DNA of 64,000 nt. Origin: a virus (Duplodnaviria > Caudoviricetes). Location: the IMG/VR virus record IMGVR_UViG_3300032167_000006. The stretch is one strand, 5' to 3'. Position numbers and translations under genes: made by a program. Of this stretch, positions 26,458 through 42,017 are shown piece after piece (position 1 is the first letter of the stretch; each line of letters starts with the position of its first letter). A model generated the notes under the pieces. That model searched no databases. It had not been told where the DNA came from and saw only the letters and a list, made by a program, of their open reading frames with translations.

Positions 26458-26733
26458 TTGGAAACTAAAAAGGTTATATTAAATAAAAAAATAGACGGTA
26501 CTAGATATAGAATTCTCCCCAAGACAAGTGCTGATATTGTTACTTTTGATGATGAAATGTCTGTTAAAGAAAAAATTTTATCTATGGAAGATAATATGGT
26601 ATCTGTTGAATATGTTACTGAAACTATTGATAAAGCAGTAGAAAAATCAGTAGAAGAAACCGTAACAGAAACAATAGAAAAGACAGTAACTGATACAATA
26701 GAAGCAACGGTTTTTGATGGGGGTGAAATTTAA
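26458..26733 (+). CDS. small fibre adaptor (PKT motif; C-terminal FDGG)
   Basis: TTG start after GGAGG; ILPKTSADIV; late motif. Confidence 0.65.
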   Translation: METKKVILNKKIDGTRYRILPKTSADIVTFDDEMSVKEKILSMEDNMVSVEYVTETIDKAVEKSVEETVTETIEKTVTDTIEATVFDGGEI

Positions 26734-26736
26734 AAC

Positions 26737-27096
26737 ATGGCCGATATTAGATTTAAAAGAGGTACCGAACAAAGATGGCGTGAGCTTAATCTTTTATTAG
26801 AGAATGGCGAGCCTGGATTTGAATATGATACCGGTAAACTAAAAATAGGCGATGGTGTTCATAGATGGTTAGAGTTAGAATATGTAGGTTCACATGCTAC
26901 AAGCAATATTGAATTTATTGAAAAATATGACGACCTTCCCAGAATTGGAACAGCTAATAAACTTTATGCTGTTGCTGAAGATAAATTAATTTATTTATGG
27001 AATACTACATCGCTTAAATATGAATCTTTTGGTAGTTCGGGATCTTTTGATCCCTCTATAATATCAAATATAAATGGAGGTACAGCAAATGGCTGA
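26737..27096 (+). CDS. Mtd_N-like fibre adaptor
   Basis: IRFKRGT..W..LLENGEPGFEYDTGKLKIGDG..W..LEY, the major tropism determinant/hyaluronidase N-terminal motif. Confidence 0.75.
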   Translation: MADIRFKRGTEQRWRELNLLLENGEPGFEYDTGKLKIGDGVHRWLELEYVGSHATSNIEFIEKYDDLPRIGTANKLYAVAEDKLIYLWNTTSLKYESFGSSGSFDPSIISNINGGTANG

Positions 27097-28435
27097 AATT
27101 AATACTAGTATTCAACTTCGTCATGATACTACAGAAAATTGGGAAACCAATAAGTCTAAGGTTCTTAAAGATGGCGAGGCTGGTGTTGAATTCCAAGAGT
27201 CAGGTAAAGTGGCTCTTAAAATTGGTCGCGATGGAAAAACATGGGATGAGCTTGATTATTTTGCAAGTGCCAACCCTGCTAAAGTATATCAGGTTGAGCT
27301 TGGTGAAAACGAGCTTGATATTGATGGTATTGAGCGTGTTGTTAATGGCGCAGAGCTTCAGTCAGGCGATTTAGCTATTGTTATGTCTGGTATCGCTGGT
27401 TCTGCTAAATCATATACTTCATACGTATATGATGGTGCTAACTGGACAGCTACAGATGGTAACTACAGCGCTGATAATGTTTATTTCAAAGATGACCTTA
27501 CTGTAACTGCTGCTATTGGTACAGTTACTGCAGATGATATTTCTGATGGTAATGGCTCATACACACTTTCTGCAGGTGGTAAGAACATTGCTCAGGTTTT
27601 AGGTTCTCTCTTAGCTGAAGCTAAAGATCCTGATGTTGATCTTCCTTCAGTAACATTATCTGCATCTGGTGGTAGTGGTGAGGTTGGTACATCATATACT
27701 CTTCCCACAGCTACACTTAAAGTAGATGATGTAGGTAGTTATACTTATGGTTCTAAAGATGCTGCTGGTACTAAATATGGTGCTTTAGATACAGGTGTTG
27801 TTTTCGCTACAGGCGATATGACACTTTCTATTGGTGATAAGTCAGTATCTAATGAATCTGATTTAACAACTGACGGTAAAATTACTATTACTGCTGAGGA
27901 TACAGCTTCTCTTTATACAGATACAGCTAAGTCTTATACATTTAAGGCTACTGCAGAATATACTGCTAGCGCAGATAGAGTTCCTGTAAATAACCTTGGT
28001 GATAAAGTTGAGTCTAAAAAGATTGGTGATGGATCTGTTACTATTGATGATAAGAAAGTAACATTCACTGGTTGGAGAAAAATGTTCATGGGCACTCTCA
28101 CTGATACCAGTGCAGCATTAACTTCTGATGTGATTAGAGGTTTATCACTTGTTAGCAAACAGGCATCTAAGACAGCTCAGACTTTCACTGTTCCTGTTGG
28201 TGCTAAAAAGATTGTTGTTGCATTCCCGAATTCATTCTCTACTAAAGAGCCTGGTTTTGAATACTTTACAATGTCTTGGGAAGGTTTCTCTGGCTTCGTT
28301 TCTGCTGGTACTGTACAGGTTGCAGATGCTCGTGGCGGTGAGAATGGTTTAACTGCATACAACGTTTATACATTTACACATGCAAGTGCAACTGGTTTTG
28401 AGGCTGATACTCAATTCCGTGTTACACTTAAGTAA
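27089..28435 (+). CDS. Mtd_N-like fibre protein with C-terminal beta domain
   Basis: start at ATG 27089; IQLRHDT..NW...LKDGE.G....LKIG.DG..W.ELDY. Confidence 0.7.
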   Translation: MAEINTSIQLRHDTTENWETNKSKVLKDGEAGVEFQESGKVALKIGRDGKTWDELDYFASANPAKVYQVELGENELDIDGIERVVNGAELQSGDLAIVMSGIAGSAKSYTSYVYDGANWTATDGNYSADNVYFKDDLTVTAAIGTVTADDISDGNGSYTLSAGGKNIAQVLGSLLAEAKDPDVDLPSVTLSASGGSGEVGTSYTLPTATLKVDDVGSYTYGSKDAAGTKYGALDTGVVFATGDMTLSIGDKSVSNESDLTTDGKITITAEDTASLYTDTAKSYTFKATAEYTASADRVPVNNLGDKVESKKIGDGSVTIDDKKVTFTGWRKMFMGTLTDTSAALTSDVIRGLSLVSKQASKTAQTFTVPVGAKKIVVAFPNSFSTKEPGFEYFTMSWEGFSGFVSAGTVQVADARGGENGLTAYNVYTFTHASATGFEADTQFRVTLK

Positions 28436-28453
28436 TAAAGGAGGTAATGATTA

Positions 28454-30790
28454 ATGGCTAAGAAATATGGTGAAAACTCTACAGTAGATTTTGCTGCTGG
28501 AAACTTAATGTCATTTGGTAAATCATTTTCAAGACTTAGCGGTCAGCCTCTTGACAAATCTGAAATTTGGTATAATGACCTTGAAGCTCTTAGAGCATAC
28601 GCTCTTACAGATGCTGCATTCGTAGGTCAGAAAGTTGTTTATATTGATACAACTGCTAGCACTGTAACTCATTACAGCATTGAGCTTGATGGTTCTCTTA
28701 AAGAGATTGGTGTTAAGCCACTTGGCGATGCTGCATCAATTACAGTTAGTGAGGCCGGTGTTGTTAGTCTTAAGAATTTTGGTGTTGAGTATTATAGACT
28801 TCTTACTAGTGATGAGGAAGGTTATAAAGAAGGCGAAGCAACTTATGTTCTTCAGACTGTAGACGCTGATCATCCTTGGAAGAGTGGTCTTGTTCCGAGA
28901 GTACTTGATGGTGCTATCGCTTGGTATGAGCCTTCTAACGTAACTGTTGAGGGTCTTAATGATACAGTAGGTTCATTACAGACTTCAGTAGATGCTAATG
29001 AGCAGGCTATTGGTGCTCTTGAAACTGTAGTTGGCGATGCTACTTCTGGTCTTGTAAAAGAAGTTGCTGATAATAAGGCTGCTTTTGATGCTTTTGCTGA
29101 AGAGCATACTTACACTGATGATGATATCGATGCTAAAGTAGCTGGCGCTTTCCACTTCCGTGGTGATGCTGAGCTTGAAGTTGGCGAAGATGAAGCTTGG
29201 ACAGGTAATCTTGTTAAAGATGGAGCTGTAATTGCTTCTCCTATAAATGGCGATGTATATCAGGTTGGCGAAGTAGAGTACGCTTATGATGGTTCTAAGT
29301 GGGTTAAGCTTGGTTTTACTCTTGATCTTACAGGTTATGCTACAAAGATTGAGCTTAATACTGCTAAGGAAGATCTCCAGGGTCAGGTAGATGATTTAGT
29401 AGATGCTGATGAGGCTCTTGCTGAAAAAGATACTGAGCTTGAAGGTTTAATTGGCGGTCTTCGTACAGATGTTGATGCTATCAATAATGAGACTTCTGGT
29501 GCTGTTGCAACTGCTAAGGCTTATACAGATGATGAAATCTCTAAACTTAATGTAAGTCAGTATGCAACAACTGAGGCTCTTGGTGAGACTAATGAAGCTG
29601 TAGCTGCTAATACTGGCTTGATTACAGAGCATAAGACTCTTCTTGATACAGTTAAGGCTACTGCAGATGCTGCTGCTACACAGACAGTTGTTAATGCTAT
29701 AGATGAGAGACTTAAGACAGCTGAAGCTGGTGTTAGTACAAATGCTGGTAATATTACTACCAATACTAATGCTATTTCTGCTCTTCAGACATCACAGGCT
29801 ACTCAGGATACAGCTATCGAGAAGAATAAGACAGACCTTGCCGATTTAACAAAAACTGTTGGTACAAACACATCAGATATATCTGGCATTAAAGGACAGA
29901 TTACTTCTATTTCAGAAGCATCTAGTAAGAATACTTCAGATCTTGCTGCTCTTACAACTAGAGTAGATACAGCTGAAGGTACTATTGCTGGACATACAAC
30001 AAGTATTGGCGATAATGCTACTGCTATAGCAGGTAATAAATCACTTATTGATGCTCTTACACCTAGAGTTACTGCTGTAGAGGGTAAAGTTACAACTCTT
30101 GAGTCTGATAATACAACTAATAAATCTGCTATCTCTGCTCTTCAGGGCTTAGTTGGTGTTAAGGCTGAAGGTGAAACTGCTGCTACTGGTCTTCATAAGG
30201 CTGTAGATGATTTGGCTGCTGTTGTTGATACTAAAGCTAACACTAACGATGTATATAGCAAGACTGCCGCAGATGAAGCTATTGCTGCTGCTGTAGCTGC
30301 TGTAGATCATCTTAAGAGAAAGATTGTTGAAGCTCTCCCTGAAGTTGCTTCTGCTGATGCTAATACCATTTACATGGTTAAAGATGCTGATGCTAAGGGT
30401 GATGATAAGTATAAGGAATACATGGTTATTGATGGTGCATTTGCTTGCATTGGCGATACAACTGTAGACCTTACAAATTACGTTCAGAAAGATGATACAA
30501 CTTATACAACAGCTCTTCAGGATATTACTAATCTTAAGAATGTAGGTTCTCAGGCTAACGTACTTGAAGCTGTAAAAGTTAATGGTATAGCTCTTGAGAT
30601 AACTGATAAGGCTGTTAACATCGGTATTGCTACAGATACTGTTCTTGGTGTTGTTCTTAGCAGCACTGCAGATAATAAAGTTTCTGTTGGTGCTGACGGT
30701 ACAATGGAAGTTAATAAATTAAATGTAAATAAGCTTGTTCAGACTGAAGGCGAAGAGCTTATTCTCTTTGGCGGTACTTCTGCTAACTAA
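28454..30790 (+). CDS. long coiled-coil fibre protein
   Basis: N-terminal QPLD motif; long Ala/Thr heptad runs; VEALP..ADANTIYMV; QANVLEAVKVNG. Confidence 0.7.
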   Translation: MAKKYGENSTVDFAAGNLMSFGKSFSRLSGQPLDKSEIWYNDLEALRAYALTDAAFVGQKVVYIDTTASTVTHYSIELDGSLKEIGVKPLGDAASITVSEAGVVSLKNFGVEYYRLLTSDEEGYKEGEATYVLQTVDADHPWKSGLVPRVLDGAIAWYEPSNVTVEGLNDTVGSLQTSVDANEQAIGALETVVGDATSGLVKEVADNKAAFDAFAEEHTYTDDDIDAKVAGAFHFRGDAELEVGEDEAWTGNLVKDGAVIASPINGDVYQVGEVEYAYDGSKWVKLGFTLDLTGYATKIELNTAKEDLQGQVDDLVDADEALAEKDTELEGLIGGLRTDVDAINNETSGAVATAKAYTDDEISKLNVSQYATTEALGETNEAVAANTGLITEHKTLLDTVKATADAAATQTVVNAIDERLKTAEAGVSTNAGNITTNTNAISALQTSQATQDTAIEKNKTDLADLTKTVGTNTSDISGIKGQITSISEASSKNTSDLAALTTRVDTAEGTIAGHTTSIGDNATAIAGNKSLIDALTPRVTAVEGKVTTLESDNTTNKSAISALQGLVGVKAEGETAATGLHKAVDDLAAVVDTKANTNDVYSKTAADEAIAAAVAAVDHLKRKIVEALPEVASADANTIYMVKDADAKGDDKYKEYMVIDGAFACIGDTTVDLTNYVQKDDTTYTTALQDITNLKNVGSQANVLEAVKVNGIALEITDKAVNIGIATDTVLGVVLSSTADNKVSVGADGTMEVNKLNVNKLVQTEGEELILFGGTSAN

Positions 30791-30801
30791 TTAAAATAAA
30801 T

Positions 30802-30833
30802 TATAGAGAGGGTAAATAAATACCCTCTCTATA
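30802..30833 (+). terminator. intra-operon stem-loop
   Basis: TATAGAGAGGGTA-aataaa-TACCCTCTCTATA. Confidence 0.65.
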
Positions 30834-30878
30834 TTTTAAATATATAAATAAAAATAAATTAAAGGAGATATATTTAAT

Positions 30879-32408
30879 ATGGCTGAAAAGAAATTAAATA
30901 CACGCATAGCCCTTAAAATTGATACACTTGAAGCGTGGGAGTCTTCCTCTTTACCTCTTAAGAAAGGCGAGGTTGCTCTTGCAACAACAACTCATGGTTC
31001 AAAGAATATAGTTCTTATGAAGGTTGCTGACACTGAAGGTCAGGTTTGGTCAGCTATTCCGGATTTCGTTTATGCTAGAGCTGCTGATGTTCTTGATGTA
31101 TGTAAAGATGCTAACGATCTTACCGCATTTATCAATAACCTTATCAATGCTGCTAACTTTACAGATAATGATGCATTCAAAGCACTTGAGCAGGATGTTT
31201 CAGATAATGCTGATGCTATTGAAGTTCTCAATGGCACTGTAGATACTGCAGGTTCTGTTGCTAAAGCTATCAAGGATGCTATCGATGCTCTTGATCTTGC
31301 TAACACATATGCTGCTAAAGAGCATGATCATGTAGTTGCTGATATTACTGATTTTGATACTGCAGTAAAAGCTTATGGTTATGCTTTAGATTCAGAACTT
31401 GATGCGGTTGCTGAGGATCTTGGTGAGGAAGTAACTCGTGCTACACAGGCTGAAGAGGCTCTTGCTGGTCGTGTTAAGACTTTAGAAGATTCTAAAGATG
31501 CATATGTTGCTGCTGATACTGCTCTTAAGACAGAGCTTGCAGCTAGCATCAAATCTACAGATGACAAGATTACTGCATTCTTAAAGGATGCTGATATGAC
31601 TGAGAAAGCTGTAGATACATTAGCAGAACTTCAGAATTATATTACAACTCATGGCAATGAAGCATCAGGCATGCTTGAAGATATTGCGGCTAACACCAAA
31701 GCTATTGGCGATGAAGTAACACGTGCTACAGGTGCTGAAGAAGCTCTTGCTGGTCGTGTTAAGACTTTAGAAGATCATAAAGATGATTATGTTGGTGCTG
31801 ACACTGCTCTTAAATCAGAACTCGAAGGTAAAATCAATGCAATTGATAACCACTCACATGAGAACAAGACAGTTCTTGATGGTATTACAGCTGAGAAAGT
31901 TTCAGCTTGGGATGCTGCTGAGAAGAATGCAAAAGATTATGCTGATGGTCTTGCAGATAATTACGATGCTGCTGGTTCAGCTGCTGATGCTCTTCAGGAT
32001 GCAAAAGACTACGCAGATGGTCTTGCTGGTAACTACGATGCTGCTGGTTCAGCTGCTGATGCTCTCGCTGATGCTAAAGAGTACGCTGATGGTTTAAAGA
32101 CAACTATCGATGCTGCTTATGCTGCTGCTGATACAGCTACACTTAACAGTGCTAAAGCTTATGCTGATGGTCTTGCTGGCAATTATGATGCTGCTGGTTC
32201 GGCTGCTGATGCACTTCAGGATGCAAAAGACTACGCTGACGGTCTTGCTGGCAACTATGCTACAGCTGCACAGGGTACTAAGGCTGACACTGCACTTCAG
32301 AAGATTGAAACAACTGCTAATGGTGGTCTCGTTGTAACTAATAATAATAAGATTGATATCGACGATACTGTTACATTCGTATTTGATTGTGGTAATGCTA
32401 CCGTTTAA
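30879..32408 (+). CDS. Mtd_N-like coiled-coil fibre protein with tandem repeats
   Basis: NTRIALKIDT..W...LKKGEVA; HDHVVADITDF; AKDYADGL repeats; ATAAQGTKADTALQ. Confidence 0.7.
   Translation: MAEKKLNTRIALKIDTLEAWESSSLPLKKGEVALATTTHGSKNIVLMKVADTEGQVWSAIPDFVYARAADVLDVCKDANDLTAFINNLINAANFTDNDAFKALEQDVSDNADAIEVLNGTVDTAGSVAKAIKDAIDALDLANTYAAKEHDHVVADITDFDTAVKAYGYALDSELDAVAEDLGEEVTRATQAEEALAGRVKTLEDSKDAYVAADTALKTELAASIKSTDDKITAFLKDADMTEKAVDTLAELQNYITTHGNEASGMLEDIAANTKAIGDEVTRATGAEEALAGRVKTLEDHKDDYVGADTALKSELEGKINAIDNHSHENKTVLDGITAEKVSAWDAAEKNAKDYADGLADNYDAAGSAADALQDAKDYADGLAGNYDAAGSAADALADAKEYADGLKTTIDAAYAAADTATLNSAKAYADGLAGNYDAAGSAADALQDAKDYADGLAGNYATAAQGTKADTALQKIETTANGGLVVTNNNKIDIDDTVTFVFDCGNATV
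31428..31815 (+). repeat. duplicated ~100-bp coding segment (EVTRATxAEEALAGRVKTLED)
   Basis: copies start at about 31428 and 31713. Confidence 0.8.
31929..32262 (+). repeat. coding tandem repeat, ~72-bp unit (AKDYADGLAGNYDAAGSAADALQD)
   Basis: near-identical DNA copies; five AKxYADGL cores. Confidence 0.85.
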
Positions 32409-32430
32409 TAATATTTACATTATATTAAAA

Positions 32431-32458
32431 AAGAGGGATTATTAATTTAATCCCTCTT
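32431..32458 (+). terminator. intra-operon stem-loop
   Basis: AAGAGGGATTA-ttaatt-TAATCCCTCTT. Confidence 0.65.
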
Positions 32459-32546
32459 ATCTATAAATTAGATATAAGATGATTTTGAAATGATAGATCG
32501 TCTAGTTCTCCAAATTTTGAAATGATAAATTAAAGGAGGCATTAAA

Positions 32547-32783
32547 ATGAAAAAAATAAAAGTCCGTATGAGCCAAAAACATGACACCGAAGCTAATTGG
32601 TTAAAGGTGCCTACATTTATCCCTTCAGATGGAGAACTAATAATATACGACCCAGATGATAAAAATAAATATCCAAGAATGAAAGTTGGAGATAATAAGA
32701 CTACTATAGTAAATCTTCCATTTATATCTGGTGCGGGTGAAATACTCTATAATGAAGATGGCGAAAAAATATTTCTAATGTAA
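32547..32783 (+). CDS. stand-alone Mtd_N-like mini-protein
   Basis: QKHDTEANW...FIP..GELIIYD...KVGD...LPF. Confidence 0.7.
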   Translation: MKKIKVRMSQKHDTEANWLKVPTFIPSDGELIIYDPDDKNKYPRMKVGDNKTTIVNLPFISGAGEILYNEDGEKIFLM

Positions 32784-32852
32784 TATTATTAGATGTATTT
32801 ATATGGGATTTATATTTTAATAAATTTTATTCGCCTAGAAAGATATAAATTC

Positions 32853-32876
32853 CCCTGTGAGAGCAATCTCACAGGG
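32853..32876. terminator. stem-loop between convergent genes
   Basis: CCCTGTGAGA-GCAA-TCTCACAGGG. Confidence 0.75.
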
Positions 32877-32884
32877 ATTAATAT

Positions 32885-33280
32885 TTACTTTAATTCAGAA
32901 TATAAATCTATTAGGATTTCTTTAAATCCATTAGCATATACAGTAATTTTTGGTTCAATATAAACGCTATAATCGTTTATTTCAATTATTTTTTTCATTG
33001 AGCTAAATATAGTGTATGAATTAGAGTTGTTATTATTTATAATATTATAACAAATAATATTTAAATTATTATCATCATCTACTTTATATTCTATTCTTGT
33101 CTCTTTTTCATCATAATCAAATTTTATATTAATTACTATATCAGTATTTAACTCATAAGAGTCTTGTAATGTAATTATAAATTTTGATTCTCTATCATTT
33201 CTAACTACTGCACTTTTTGATAAAATTTTTTTATATTTGTTATCTACGATAACATCACATGATATAGAAGTATGTTCCAT
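32885..33280 (-). CDS. hypothetical protein inserted antisense in the fibre operon
   Basis: AAGGAG RBS; hairpin downstream. Confidence 0.65.
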   Translation of the reverse strand: MEHTSISCDVIVDNKYKKILSKSAVVRNDRESKFIITLQDSYELNTDIVINIKFDYDEKETRIEYKVDDDNNLNIICYNIINNNNSNSYTIFSSMKKIIEINDYSVYIEPKITVYANGFKEILIDLYSELK

Positions 33281-33372
33281 ATTAAATATCTCCTTAAAAT
33301 TATTTTATCTTAAAGTATGTAATATTTTAAAAATTAATAAATAAAAATTCCTAAAAAGGAGGGATATAAATT

Positions 33373-33681
33373 ATGGCTGAAAAAACTATTAAAAGTAGAT
33401 CAATACAAAAGCATGATATTGAAGCTAATTGGATCAAAGCCACTAATTTTATACCTAAACAAGGCGAAATTATTGTTTATGATATTGAAGTAGACGCTAA
33501 TGGCAATAATTTGACTTTGCCATCTGGTAGAACTACTCCTTATACATATGAACGTTTTAAAATTGGTGATGGTAAAACTCTTGTAAGTTCATTACCTTTT
33601 GTTATGGAAAGTATCTCAGATGCTGAAATAGATGCTATTTGTGGTGCAACTATTTATGCAGCTAGCGAGGTGATCTTATAA
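33373..33681 (+). CDS. stand-alone Mtd_N-like adaptor
   Basis: QKHDIEANW...FIPKQGEIIVYD...KIGDG...LPF; C-terminal ISDAEIDAIC. Confidence 0.7.
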   Translation: MAEKTIKSRSIQKHDIEANWIKATNFIPKQGEIIVYDIEVDANGNNLTLPSGRTTPYTYERFKIGDGKTLVSSLPFVMESISDAEIDAICGATIYAASEVIL

Positions 33682-35983: not shown

Positions 35984-36964
35984 ATGAAATTACAAATATT
36001 AATCCCTCAATATAAAGAGACAGAAGATATAATCAAATCTCTTCTCGATAGTATTGAGGTTCAACAAAATATAGATTTAAAAAATGATATTGGCGTTATT
36101 ATCGTCAATGATGGCACCGATATTCATCTTAGCCAAGAATTCTTTAAAAGATACTCATTTCCAATAGAGTATCATCTTAACGAGCATAAAGGTGTTTCAG
36201 CAACTCGTAATGCTTGTCTTGACCATGCAACAGCAGATTATGTTATGTTCTGTGATGCTGATGATATGTTCTACAATGCTTGTGGAATGTATATCATATT
36301 CCGTGAAATAGACAATGGTGGCTTTGATAGTTTAGTATCTGCTTTTATTGAAGAGTCACGCATTCCAGAAACAAAAGAGGTAGTATATATTAATCACGAT
36401 ATGGATTCTACCTTTGTTCATGGTAAGGTTCATCGTAGACAATATCTTATTGATAATAATATTAGATGGAATGATAATCTTACAATTCACGAAGACAGTT
36501 ATTTCAACTGCCTATGCCAACGCTTGGCACGAGAATTAAAATACTCTCAAACATCATTCTATCTTTGGAAATGGCGTGATGCTTCAGTATGTCGCCATGA
36601 CCCCAAGTATATTTTAAAAACTTACAATAATATGCTTGATAGTAACGATGCTTTGGTCGAACAGTTCCTAAATCGTCGCAGAAAAGAAGATGCTATGTTT
36701 TATGCAGTCGGCATGATTTATGATGCTTATTTTACTATGAATAAAGATGAGTGGTTAAATCAAGAGAATAAAGATTATCGCTATGCTACAGAAAAACGCT
36801 TTAAAGAATATTGGTTGAAATATAAAACCTTGCACGATGAAATTCCTAAAGATGTAAAAACACAGATTATTATGGGAATTAAAAATCGTATGTATGGTGA
36901 AGGTATGGTATTAGAAACACTTACCTTTAATGAATGGATTAAACAAGTGGAGGCAATGGTATGA
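35984..36964 (+). CDS. glycosyltransferase family 2
   Basis: ILIPQY, IIVNDG, GVSATRN, FCDADD, HEDSYF. Confidence 0.9.
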   Translation: MKLQILIPQYKETEDIIKSLLDSIEVQQNIDLKNDIGVIIVNDGTDIHLSQEFFKRYSFPIEYHLNEHKGVSATRNACLDHATADYVMFCDADDMFYNACGMYIIFREIDNGGFDSLVSAFIEESRIPETKEVVYINHDMDSTFVHGKVHRRQYLIDNNIRWNDNLTIHEDSYFNCLCQRLARELKYSQTSFYLWKWRDASVCRHDPKYILKTYNNMLDSNDALVEQFLNRRRKEDAMFYAVGMIYDAYFTMNKDEWLNQENKDYRYATEKRFKEYWLKYKTLHDEIPKDVKTQIIMGIKNRMYGEGMVLETLTFNEWIKQVEAMV

Positions 36965-41219: not shown

Positions 41220-42017
41220 ATGATAAATGTTATTATACCTGCATATAACTGTACTGCTACTTTAGGTAGAACTCTTAGTTCACTGGTAGCACAAACAGAT
41301 CAGGATTTTATAGTCACTGTTGTAGATGATTGTTCTACTGAAGATATTAAATCTATAGTAGATGATTATAGTAATAAATTGAATATTAATTATATTCGTA
41401 ATGAGAAAAATCTTGGATGTGGCATGTCACGTCAAGTTGGAATTGATAATACAACACAAGATTTTATAACTTTCTTAGATTCTGATGATATGTTTATGCC
41501 ATATGCGGTAGAAACTTTTAATGAAGTTATTAAAGCAAATCCAAATACTGAATTTCTTCATACACATTTCTATGAACAAATTAAAATAAATGGTGAAGTT
41601 GCTTTAGTTTTAAGAGAAGATAATTTTACTGCATGTCATGGTAAATTATATAATGTATCATTACTAAGAAAATTTAATATAAGGAATTCTCCCGAAGTTA
41701 AATGGGCCGATGACTCATATTTCAATTCAATGTGTAATGCATTTATGAAGATAAGTACCATTAAAGTGATAACAATGTTATGGGCTTATAATGAGAATTC
41801 AGTTTTAAGAAAAAATGATAGCAATAGAGATAATAATAAAGTATATGATTTTCTCAATGCTATGTATTTATCAGTAAAATTCATCGTTGAAAATAACGGT
41901 GATTTAAAATTTATTAAACAAAATATACTTGATTTTCCAAATAGATTTAAAGATTTAAAAGGCAAAGAATTAGCCTTAATGAATAAAATATTAAATTACA
42001 TAAGGAGGAAGTCATAA
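41220..42017 (+). CDS. glycosyltransferase family 2
   Basis: VIIPAYN, VVDDCS, NLGCGMSRQ, FLDSDD, DDSYF. Confidence 0.9.
   Translation: MINVIIPAYNCTATLGRTLSSLVAQTDQDFIVTVVDDCSTEDIKSIVDDYSNKLNINYIRNEKNLGCGMSRQVGIDNTTQDFITFLDSDDMFMPYAVETFNEVIKANPNTEFLHTHFYEQIKINGEVALVLREDNFTACHGKLYNVSLLRKFNIRNSPEVKWADDSYFNSMCNAFMKISTIKVITMLWAYNENSVLRKNDSNRDNNKVYDFLNAMYLSVKFIVENNGDLKFIKQNILDFPNRFKDLKGKELALMNKILNYIRRKS

Follow-up and report, generated by a model that had tools for sequence, protein, structure and literature searches.

C-terminal Glycine-Glycine Tails Encoded Ahead of Mtd_N-type Heads in a Phage Fibre Gene Cluster

The Gene Cluster

We analyzed a stretch of 64,000 nucleotides (nt) from a tailed virus (Duplodnaviria; Caudoviricetes; IMG/VR virus record IMGVR_UViG_3300032167_000006), hereafter called the window. 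An earlier reading of its letters alone (the original prediction) had drawn attention to proteins that end in a short peptide with two glycines, or a cysteine and a glycine, here called the tail. In each case the next gene encodes a protein opening with a domain of the Mtd_N type (Pfam PF18454), here called the head. This pairing is real, non-random and widespread, and the tail probably serves to dock one fibre protein onto the next.

The window is part of a 259-kb viral record with ~30% G+C and an estimated completeness of 96%. Following a strand switch at ~26.2 kb, a plus-strand cluster encodes nine proteins, P1 to P9 (26213-35945; Table 1), after which come further fibre-like proteins, two GT2-like glycosyltransferases and one peptidase. 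A nucleotide search of the cluster against cultured phages returned no match.

Table 1. Proteins and hairpins of the cluster, in window coordinates (aa, amino acids; RBS, ribosome-binding site; HMM, hidden Markov model).
Feature	Position	Strand	Description
P1	26213..26404	+	63 aa; N-terminal P-K-T-x-A-D-x-V motif followed by coiled coil; no G-G tail; paralogue of the P2 N-terminus
P2	26458..26733	+	91 aa; P-K-T motif, helix (residues 54-86 in model), tail F-D-G-G-E-I (nt 26713-26730); candidate initiator of chain A
P3	26737..27096	+	119 aa; Mtd_N head (residues 4-41, 42.2 bits), short middle, tail I-N-G-G-T-A-N-G (nt 27070-27093); candidate connector
P4	27089..28435	+	448 aa; Mtd_N-like head, no tail; candidate distal end of chain A
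P5	28454..30790	+	778 aa; coiled-coil-rich fibre shaft without head; tail L-F-G-G-T-S-A-N (nt 30764-30787); candidate initiator of chain B
Terminator-like hairpin	30802..30833		Between P5 and P6; RBS of P6 lies downstream of the hairpin
P6	30879..32408	+	509 aa; Mtd_N-like head (custom HMM only), repeat-rich shaft, tail F-D-C-G-N-A-T-V (nt 32382-32405); candidate connector of chain B
Terminator-like hairpin	32431..32458		Between P6 and P7
P7	32547..32783	+	78 aa; almost only an Mtd_N-like head, 'F-I-P' subtype; no G-G tail
P8	33373..33681	+	102 aa; head paralogue of P7; tail-like I-C-G-A-T, with 10 residues after its C-G; stop codon overlaps the P9 start
P9	33681..35945	+	754 aa; BspA-type leucine-rich-repeat protein; no Mtd_N head; candidate receptor-binding tip

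Tails in the Genome

The four tails named in the original prediction lie where it had placed them, at the ends of P2, P3, P5 and P6. In each of these proteins hydrophobic-x-[GC]-G falls within the last eight residues, and all four are followed on the same strand by a gene whose product opens with an Mtd_N-type head. When the pattern hydrophobic-x-[GC]-G-x(2-4)-end was scored over the whole genome on open reading frames (ORFs) of at least 40 aa, it matched 5 of 869. Four of these matches are P2, P3, P5 and P6, each directly before an Mtd_N-type N-terminus, and their concentration in this one cluster excludes chance. The fifth, a 130-aa ORF located ~31 kb ahead of the window, has an unrelated gene without a head after it and looks like a chance match. 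No DNA repeats were found at the window junctions, so conservation lies at the protein level.

By its title, the original prediction had a tail before each Mtd_N gene, which proved slightly too strong. Tails directly precede four of the five heads (those of P3, P4, P6 and P7) but not that of P8, whose upstream neighbour P7 is tailless and is separated from it by a reverse-strand ORF; moreover, a single head exceeds the Pfam threshold (see below). Two further motifs in the cluster resemble the tails. The tail of P3 is preceded by a degenerate first copy of the motif, and if the tail-like motif of P8 is counted, the cluster holds five tails and five heads.

Heads in the Genome

Mtd_N or Mtd_N-like domains had been predicted at 26737, 27089, 30879, 32547 and 33373, that is, in P3, P4, P6, P7 and P8. 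The head motif is present in all five, which begin at most 15 residues from the start codon and whose N-termini align with each other and with relatives. Only P3 passed the PF18454 gathering score of 26.3 bits (42.2 bits, or 43.9 in the genome search); P4, P7 and P8 stayed below it at 18.4, 15.7 and 16.7 bits, and P6 gave no match. A custom HMM was built from 13 canonical heads, comprising that of P3 and heads of other phages, with P4, P6, P7 and P8 left out. It recovered P4 (E = 6e-10), P8 (E = 9e-5) and P6 (E = 4e-4), and P7 only at E = 0.13. As these four are related to the family by alignment and custom HMM while falling below the Pfam threshold, 'Mtd_N-like' is the safe label for them.

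In a PDB sequence search the P3 head matched the N-terminus of the streptococcal prophage protein HylP (E = 8e-6). Its AlphaFold 2 (AF2) model has a predicted local distance difference test (pLDDT) score of 97-98, and Foldseek superposed it on HylP2 (2DP5) with a root-mean-square deviation of 1.3 Å over 46 columns, and on Mtd (1YU0-1YU4) at ~2 Å over 36-39 columns with a probability of 0.5-0.84. The model thus points to the N-terminal fold of HylP and Mtd. Human collagen XV and XVIII have trimerisation domains onto which the same model (26737-26886) can likewise be superposed (1.6-2.3 Å over ~46 residues), in keeping with the head being a compact unit that trimerises. A search of viral contigs for close relatives of P3 found none.

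Heads of a weaker kind occur elsewhere in this genome. At least three small proteins with weak Mtd_N-like modules (E = 1e-7 to 0.1) lie among short Cys-rich genes at window coordinates -135238 to -130011, outside the window and on the minus strand of the oriented genome; a fourth small protein in the same interval shows the head motif by eye, with no G-G tails nearby. These proteins look like a non-structural reuse of the head domain.

Survey of Viral Contigs

The original prediction had proposed a survey of the C-termini encoded upstream of Mtd_N genes. Our survey covered 80 viral contigs with 82 heads, retrieved by a degenerate DNA pattern for the head core G-E-x-G-x-E-x-D-T-x3-K-x-G-D-G and therefore selected on the head alone; the motif consensus given below is based on these loci only. 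The strict tail was strongly enriched, being present on the upstream protein in 22 of 75 cases compared with 12 of 788 other genes of the same loci (odds ratio 27, p = 5e-17). The enrichment held when only tight-junction controls were considered (22/75 vs. 6/378, p = 6e-14), and six of the 12 control matches themselves precede divergent heads. Another 16 of the 75 upstream proteins match a looser form of the tail. In the opposite direction, with these six counted, a head follows a strict tail in 28 of 34 cases in these loci.

Across 37 distinct survey tails the consensus reads hydrophobic (I/Y/L/F), D/N, G, G, T/A/S, A/P, and in 17 of them the chain ends exactly two residues past the G-G. Many tails show a fuller module in which two copies of the motif lie ~14 residues apart. 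We considered whether such a double motif recruits two different head proteins, and this was unsupported, as a second downstream head gene was present at none of seven double tails.

Relation to Ribosome-Binding Sites

The junctions of the window are of two kinds, as the original prediction had noted. Between P2 and P3 and between P3 and P4, the codons of the two glycines (GGG-GGT and GGA-GGT) are spaced from the next starts (26737 and 27089) as a Shine-Dalgarno sequence would be. Between P5 and P6 and between P6 and P7, the corresponding codons (GGC-GGT and TGT-GGT) are ~100 and ~150 nt away from the starts that follow, both of which have an AAAGGAG site of their own, and each of these gaps holds a terminator-like hairpin in addition to the separate RBS. 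Tails therefore persist where the RBS is intergenic. The same is true of Bbp9 in Bordetella phage BPP-1 and of a crAss-like phage, and 13 of 38 survey tails, strict and loose forms together, have 29 nt or more between the G-G and the head start. The original prediction had named a lack of tails at junctions with an intergenic RBS as grounds for refutation, and it withstood this check.

About two thirds of the survey tails (~25/38) place the G-G 5-14 nt before the start, again at Shine-Dalgarno distance, and the G-G codons often serve twice, as peptide and as RBS. Tight junctions as such, however, rarely encode a terminal G-G. It falls within the last two to six residues at 25 of 45 tight junctions before heads (56%), compared with 10 of 290 control junctions in the survey loci and 5 of 62 tight junctions in this genome (3-8%), the five in this genome probably including P2 and P3. 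These control frequencies are far too low for an embedded RBS to be the cause of the tail, and we rejected that origin on the frequencies and on the tails far from the start. We conclude that the peptide came first and that its use as an RBS was opportunistic; this agrees with the view, already put forward in the original prediction, that the tail is kept for protein-level reasons. Recoding or read-through as a general mechanism was likewise rejected, given that tail and head share a reading frame in only 2 of 22 strict survey pairs and that hairpins stand at two of the window junctions.

Relatives, a Fused Form and a Prospective Test

With only ~38% identity to P5, three distant contigs from viruses (L003-L005) nonetheless match the window in the types of tail and head present at corresponding junctions. 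Where the tail is of the C-G variant, the head after it is of the 'F-I-P/F-K-P' subtype, both in the window and in two of these relatives, L003 and L004. In the same two, head genes contain an in-frame TAG, such that the conserved R-I-Q-L-K reads R-I-stop-L-K (L003:10020 and L004:8021; also L004 at ~6600), which suggests that TAG has been reassigned to sense in these phages. With TAG read as sense, every tail in these loci is followed by a head. The window phage itself reads cleanly with the standard code.

Over all fetched loci, 146 of 147 distinct heads are N-terminal. The single internal head belongs to a 302-aa protein (L086), in which F-D-G-G and a 7-residue linker stand directly before the head. 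The N-domain of this protein and its head-plus-C-domain exist widely as separate proteins, and other members of the N-domain family end in a double tail. The G-G and the head's basic pair are spaced 12 residues apart in this fusion and 10 across the in-frame P2-stop-P3 junction of the window.

The family of this N-domain also provided a prospective test. A 372-aa relative was chosen only for its homology to the L086 N-domain and for its long contig, and the downstream sequence was inspected afterwards. The test succeeded: the protein ends in a double tail and its gene overlaps a 203-aa PF18454 gene. In addition, the two genes upstream of it end in G-G-type or related tails, and the heads after these tails belong to a second subtype (K-R-S ... 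G-E-L-A). Three tail-to-head junctions thus follow one another in this locus, and the chain stops with its first tailless protein. Taken together, the N-terminal position of heads, the fusion with the tail before the head and the prospective test support a physical tail-to-head junction. A marine viral contig (L134:98-4223) encodes a four-protein chain with three tail-to-head junctions; its heads are of the canonical and the K-R-S...G-E-L-A subtypes, and it uses tail variants whose last residue is F.

Occurrence in Cultured Phages

The pairing is also found in cultured phages of Streptococcus, Bacteroides, Arthrobacter and Gordonia, and in BPP-1. In Streptococcus phage Javan477, a Tal-like endopeptidase ends in I-L-D-G-G-N-Q and its gene overlaps hylP. 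A crAss-like Bacteroides phage encodes a lectin-like protein with a double motif, followed by a fibre. Arthrobacter phages Paella and Loretta have two successive junctions each, the first in Loretta with the motif 17 residues before the end, and Gordonia phage TZGordon carries the pairing as well. Among the loci examined, it was absent from Rhodococcus phage ReqiPepy6 and from T4-like cyanophages. In BPP-1 itself, which founded the family, the C-terminus of the putative tail fibre protein Bbp9 reads L-G-G-I-A; mtd follows after 15 nt, and the intervening spacer holds the RBS.

Other Features of the Cluster

Several further features of the cluster deserve mention. The P-K-T-x-A-D-x-V motif common to the N-termini of P1 and P2 recurs at the start of the lectin-like, tail-bearing protein in the crAss-like phage (L007:1954-2976), and may be a second docking motif that anchors chain initiators. 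Between P7 and P8, a 131-aa reverse-strand ORF (32885-33280, -) without a family match adjoins a bidirectional hairpin (32853-32876). Insertion of this gene may have split a duplicated P7/P8 pair. P6 contains internal direct repeats (31420-32268) with units of 72-285 nt that are 77-86% identical and encode a repeated Ala- and Asp-rich shaft segment. The two glycosyltransferase genes, of GT2/GtrB-like type, lie inside the fibre cluster at 35984-36964 and 41220-42017, and their products may glycosylate the fibres.

Possible Role of the Tail

The recurrence of the same pairing in many unrelated phages suggests that the peptide clips fibre segments end to end. We regard it as probable, on sequence grounds, that the G-G peptide acts as a docking plug and the Mtd_N domain of the next protein as its socket; the interpretation in the original prediction is thereby supported in part, and like it we infer that the tail is the ligand of the Mtd_N trimer. 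The plug would consist of a C-terminal hydrophobic residue, D/N, G or C, G, a small residue and A/S/P, with the chain ending within a few residues, and the socket would be the ~50-residue Mtd_N domain that opens the next protein. Mtd_N would act as a small trimerising cap (a beta-prism in Mtd and HylP), its N-termini facing the preceding fibre. The three tails of an upstream trimer could then seat on or in the cap, and separately encoded trimers would join coaxially in gene order.

Under this scheme, a protein with only a tail would start a chain, one with head and tail would extend it, and one with only a head would end it. Two chains can be proposed for the cluster. Chain A would run from P2 (anchor motif, helix and tail) through P3 (head, spacer and tail) to P4 (head and a 400-aa distal part). 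Chain B would run from P5 (778-aa shaft and tail) through P6 (head, repeat shaft and C-G tail) to P7, P8 or both, whose heads are of the cap-only kind, and P8 might in turn carry P9, to which it is translationally coupled. We speculate that P8 is either an adaptor for P9 or a partner of P7.

Several observations weigh against this scheme. About half of the surveyed Mtd_N genes, for example in T4-like cyanophages and ReqiPepy6, have no recognizable tail upstream, meaning that heads also use other partners or that their partners are encoded elsewhere. Many survey pairs are phylogenetically related, and the counts are accordingly not fully independent. The weak Mtd_N-like modules in small non-structural genes of this genome have no tails near them. 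Finally, AF2 monomer models, which cannot represent a trimer-on-trimer joint, predicted the tail with low to medium confidence: in the L086 fusion, tail and linker (residues 103-127) have pLDDT <50, and in a P2-stop-P3 read-through the tail reaches pLDDT 65-72 and forms no strand.

These monomer models, in which tail and head do not pack, would also suit a different explanation, in which the tail completes the upstream trimer on its own, for instance as a folding nucleus or cap, makes no contact with the next protein and precedes heads only through the clustering of fibre genes. Both elements do sit at trimer ends, and the head fold resembles stand-alone trimerisation domains such as those of collagen XV/XVIII. 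However, the tail recurs on scaffolds with no relation to one another, among them a Tal-like endopeptidase, a lectin-like protein, a 91-aa helical protein and proteins of 60-160 aa, it is missing from the final member of each chain, and clustering alone does not predict that a head follows 28 of 34 strict tails. We consider this explanation unlikely.

Alternatively, the pairing could be a relic or a tool of gene-level modularity that needs no present-day recognition, arising where fibres were split at domain borders or serving as a recombination joint for distal modules. Mosaic families that combine N-domains, heads and C-domains in many ways are in keeping with this, as is the existence of one fused form. 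Yet the window junctions lack nucleotide-level repeats and differ in their glycine codons, while the motif is kept at the protein level across very different phage groups, and pieces produced by splitting would still need a joint to hold them. This makes a purely genetic role quite improbable.

The tail might also be a recognition tag for a factor other than the head, such as an assembly chaperone or a glycosyltransferase of the cluster, two GT2-like genes being part of the same operon-like unit. The pairing is present, however, in small genomes (Streptococcus, Gordonia and BPP-1) that have no annotated glycosyltransferase around the examined junctions, and no common third gene was seen; we accordingly hold this to be very improbable. 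It is scarcely credible, lastly, that the G-G codons are merely the Shine-Dalgarno sequence of the next gene read in frame: their spacing in most survey tails and at two window junctions would suit this, but the control frequencies, the 13 survey tails far from the start and the hairpin junctions that keep their tails speak against it, and it accounts neither for the C-G variant nor for the hydrophobic and D/N residues beside the G-G or the upstream copy in double motifs.

Returning to the plug-and-socket scheme, whether G-G tail and Mtd_N head together form a general, sequence-readable connector of many tailed phages is in our estimate evenly balanced. Phage host range is set by fibres, which often consist of several proteins, and their order of attachment is usually solved structure by structure. 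If the scheme is correct, gene ends alone could reveal how long multi-protein fibres are, in what order their parts are joined and where they begin and end, annotators could build fibre chains from sequence, and the choice of partner would be encoded in subtypes such as the pairing of C-G tails with 'F-I-P' heads. It would further explain many tiny 'hypothetical' genes as cap-only or merely tail-ended proteins, and would offer a natural portable junction with which to study or exchange receptor-binding modules in laboratory phages.

Comparison With Known Systems

Our literature searches found no paper describing the tail motif or a partner peptide of Mtd, and PDB sequence searches returned isolated HylP only, with no virion complex or solved structure of a head with its partner. 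The closest known systems are BPP-1 and HylP. The beta-prism of Mtd presumably attaches to a tail fibre protein (PMC10743442), and the tail would, if our reading holds, be the missing partner in this long-assumed attachment of Mtd and HylP to fibres. BPP-1 (PDB 1YU0, PF18454) resembles the window in that Mtd shares the N-terminal domain and the upstream bbp9 has a G-G tail, although this tail is one position off the strict pattern. It differs in having one junction and a C-type-lectin tip diversified by a retroelement, whereas the window has four junctions, two proposed chains and no retroelement.

HylP, the hyaluronidase of Streptococcus prophages (PDB 2C3F, 2DP5 and 6X3M), is matched at its N-terminus by the P3 head both in sequence and in predicted fold. 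It is, however, an enzymatic terminal fibre on a siphovirus tail tip, while the heads of the window stand on non-enzymatic shafts and on tiny cap-only proteins.

The long tail fibre of T4 consists of the separately encoded proteins gp34, gp35, gp36 and gp37, joined end to end in gene order. The chains proposed here would likewise form one fibre from several separately encoded proteins in gene order. Unlike them, the T4 fibre uses unrelated, protein-specific joints and includes one monomeric component, and we know of no repeated generic plug-and-socket pair in it.

Docking of fibre modules through a peptide does exist in podophages A1002 and GP4, in which a short docking segment of the rope proteins recruits small fibre units by beta-sheet augmentation (PMC13730344). 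Those units are dimers of a different fold that dock side-on along the rope, in contrast to the trimeric caps at chain ends that we propose for the window.

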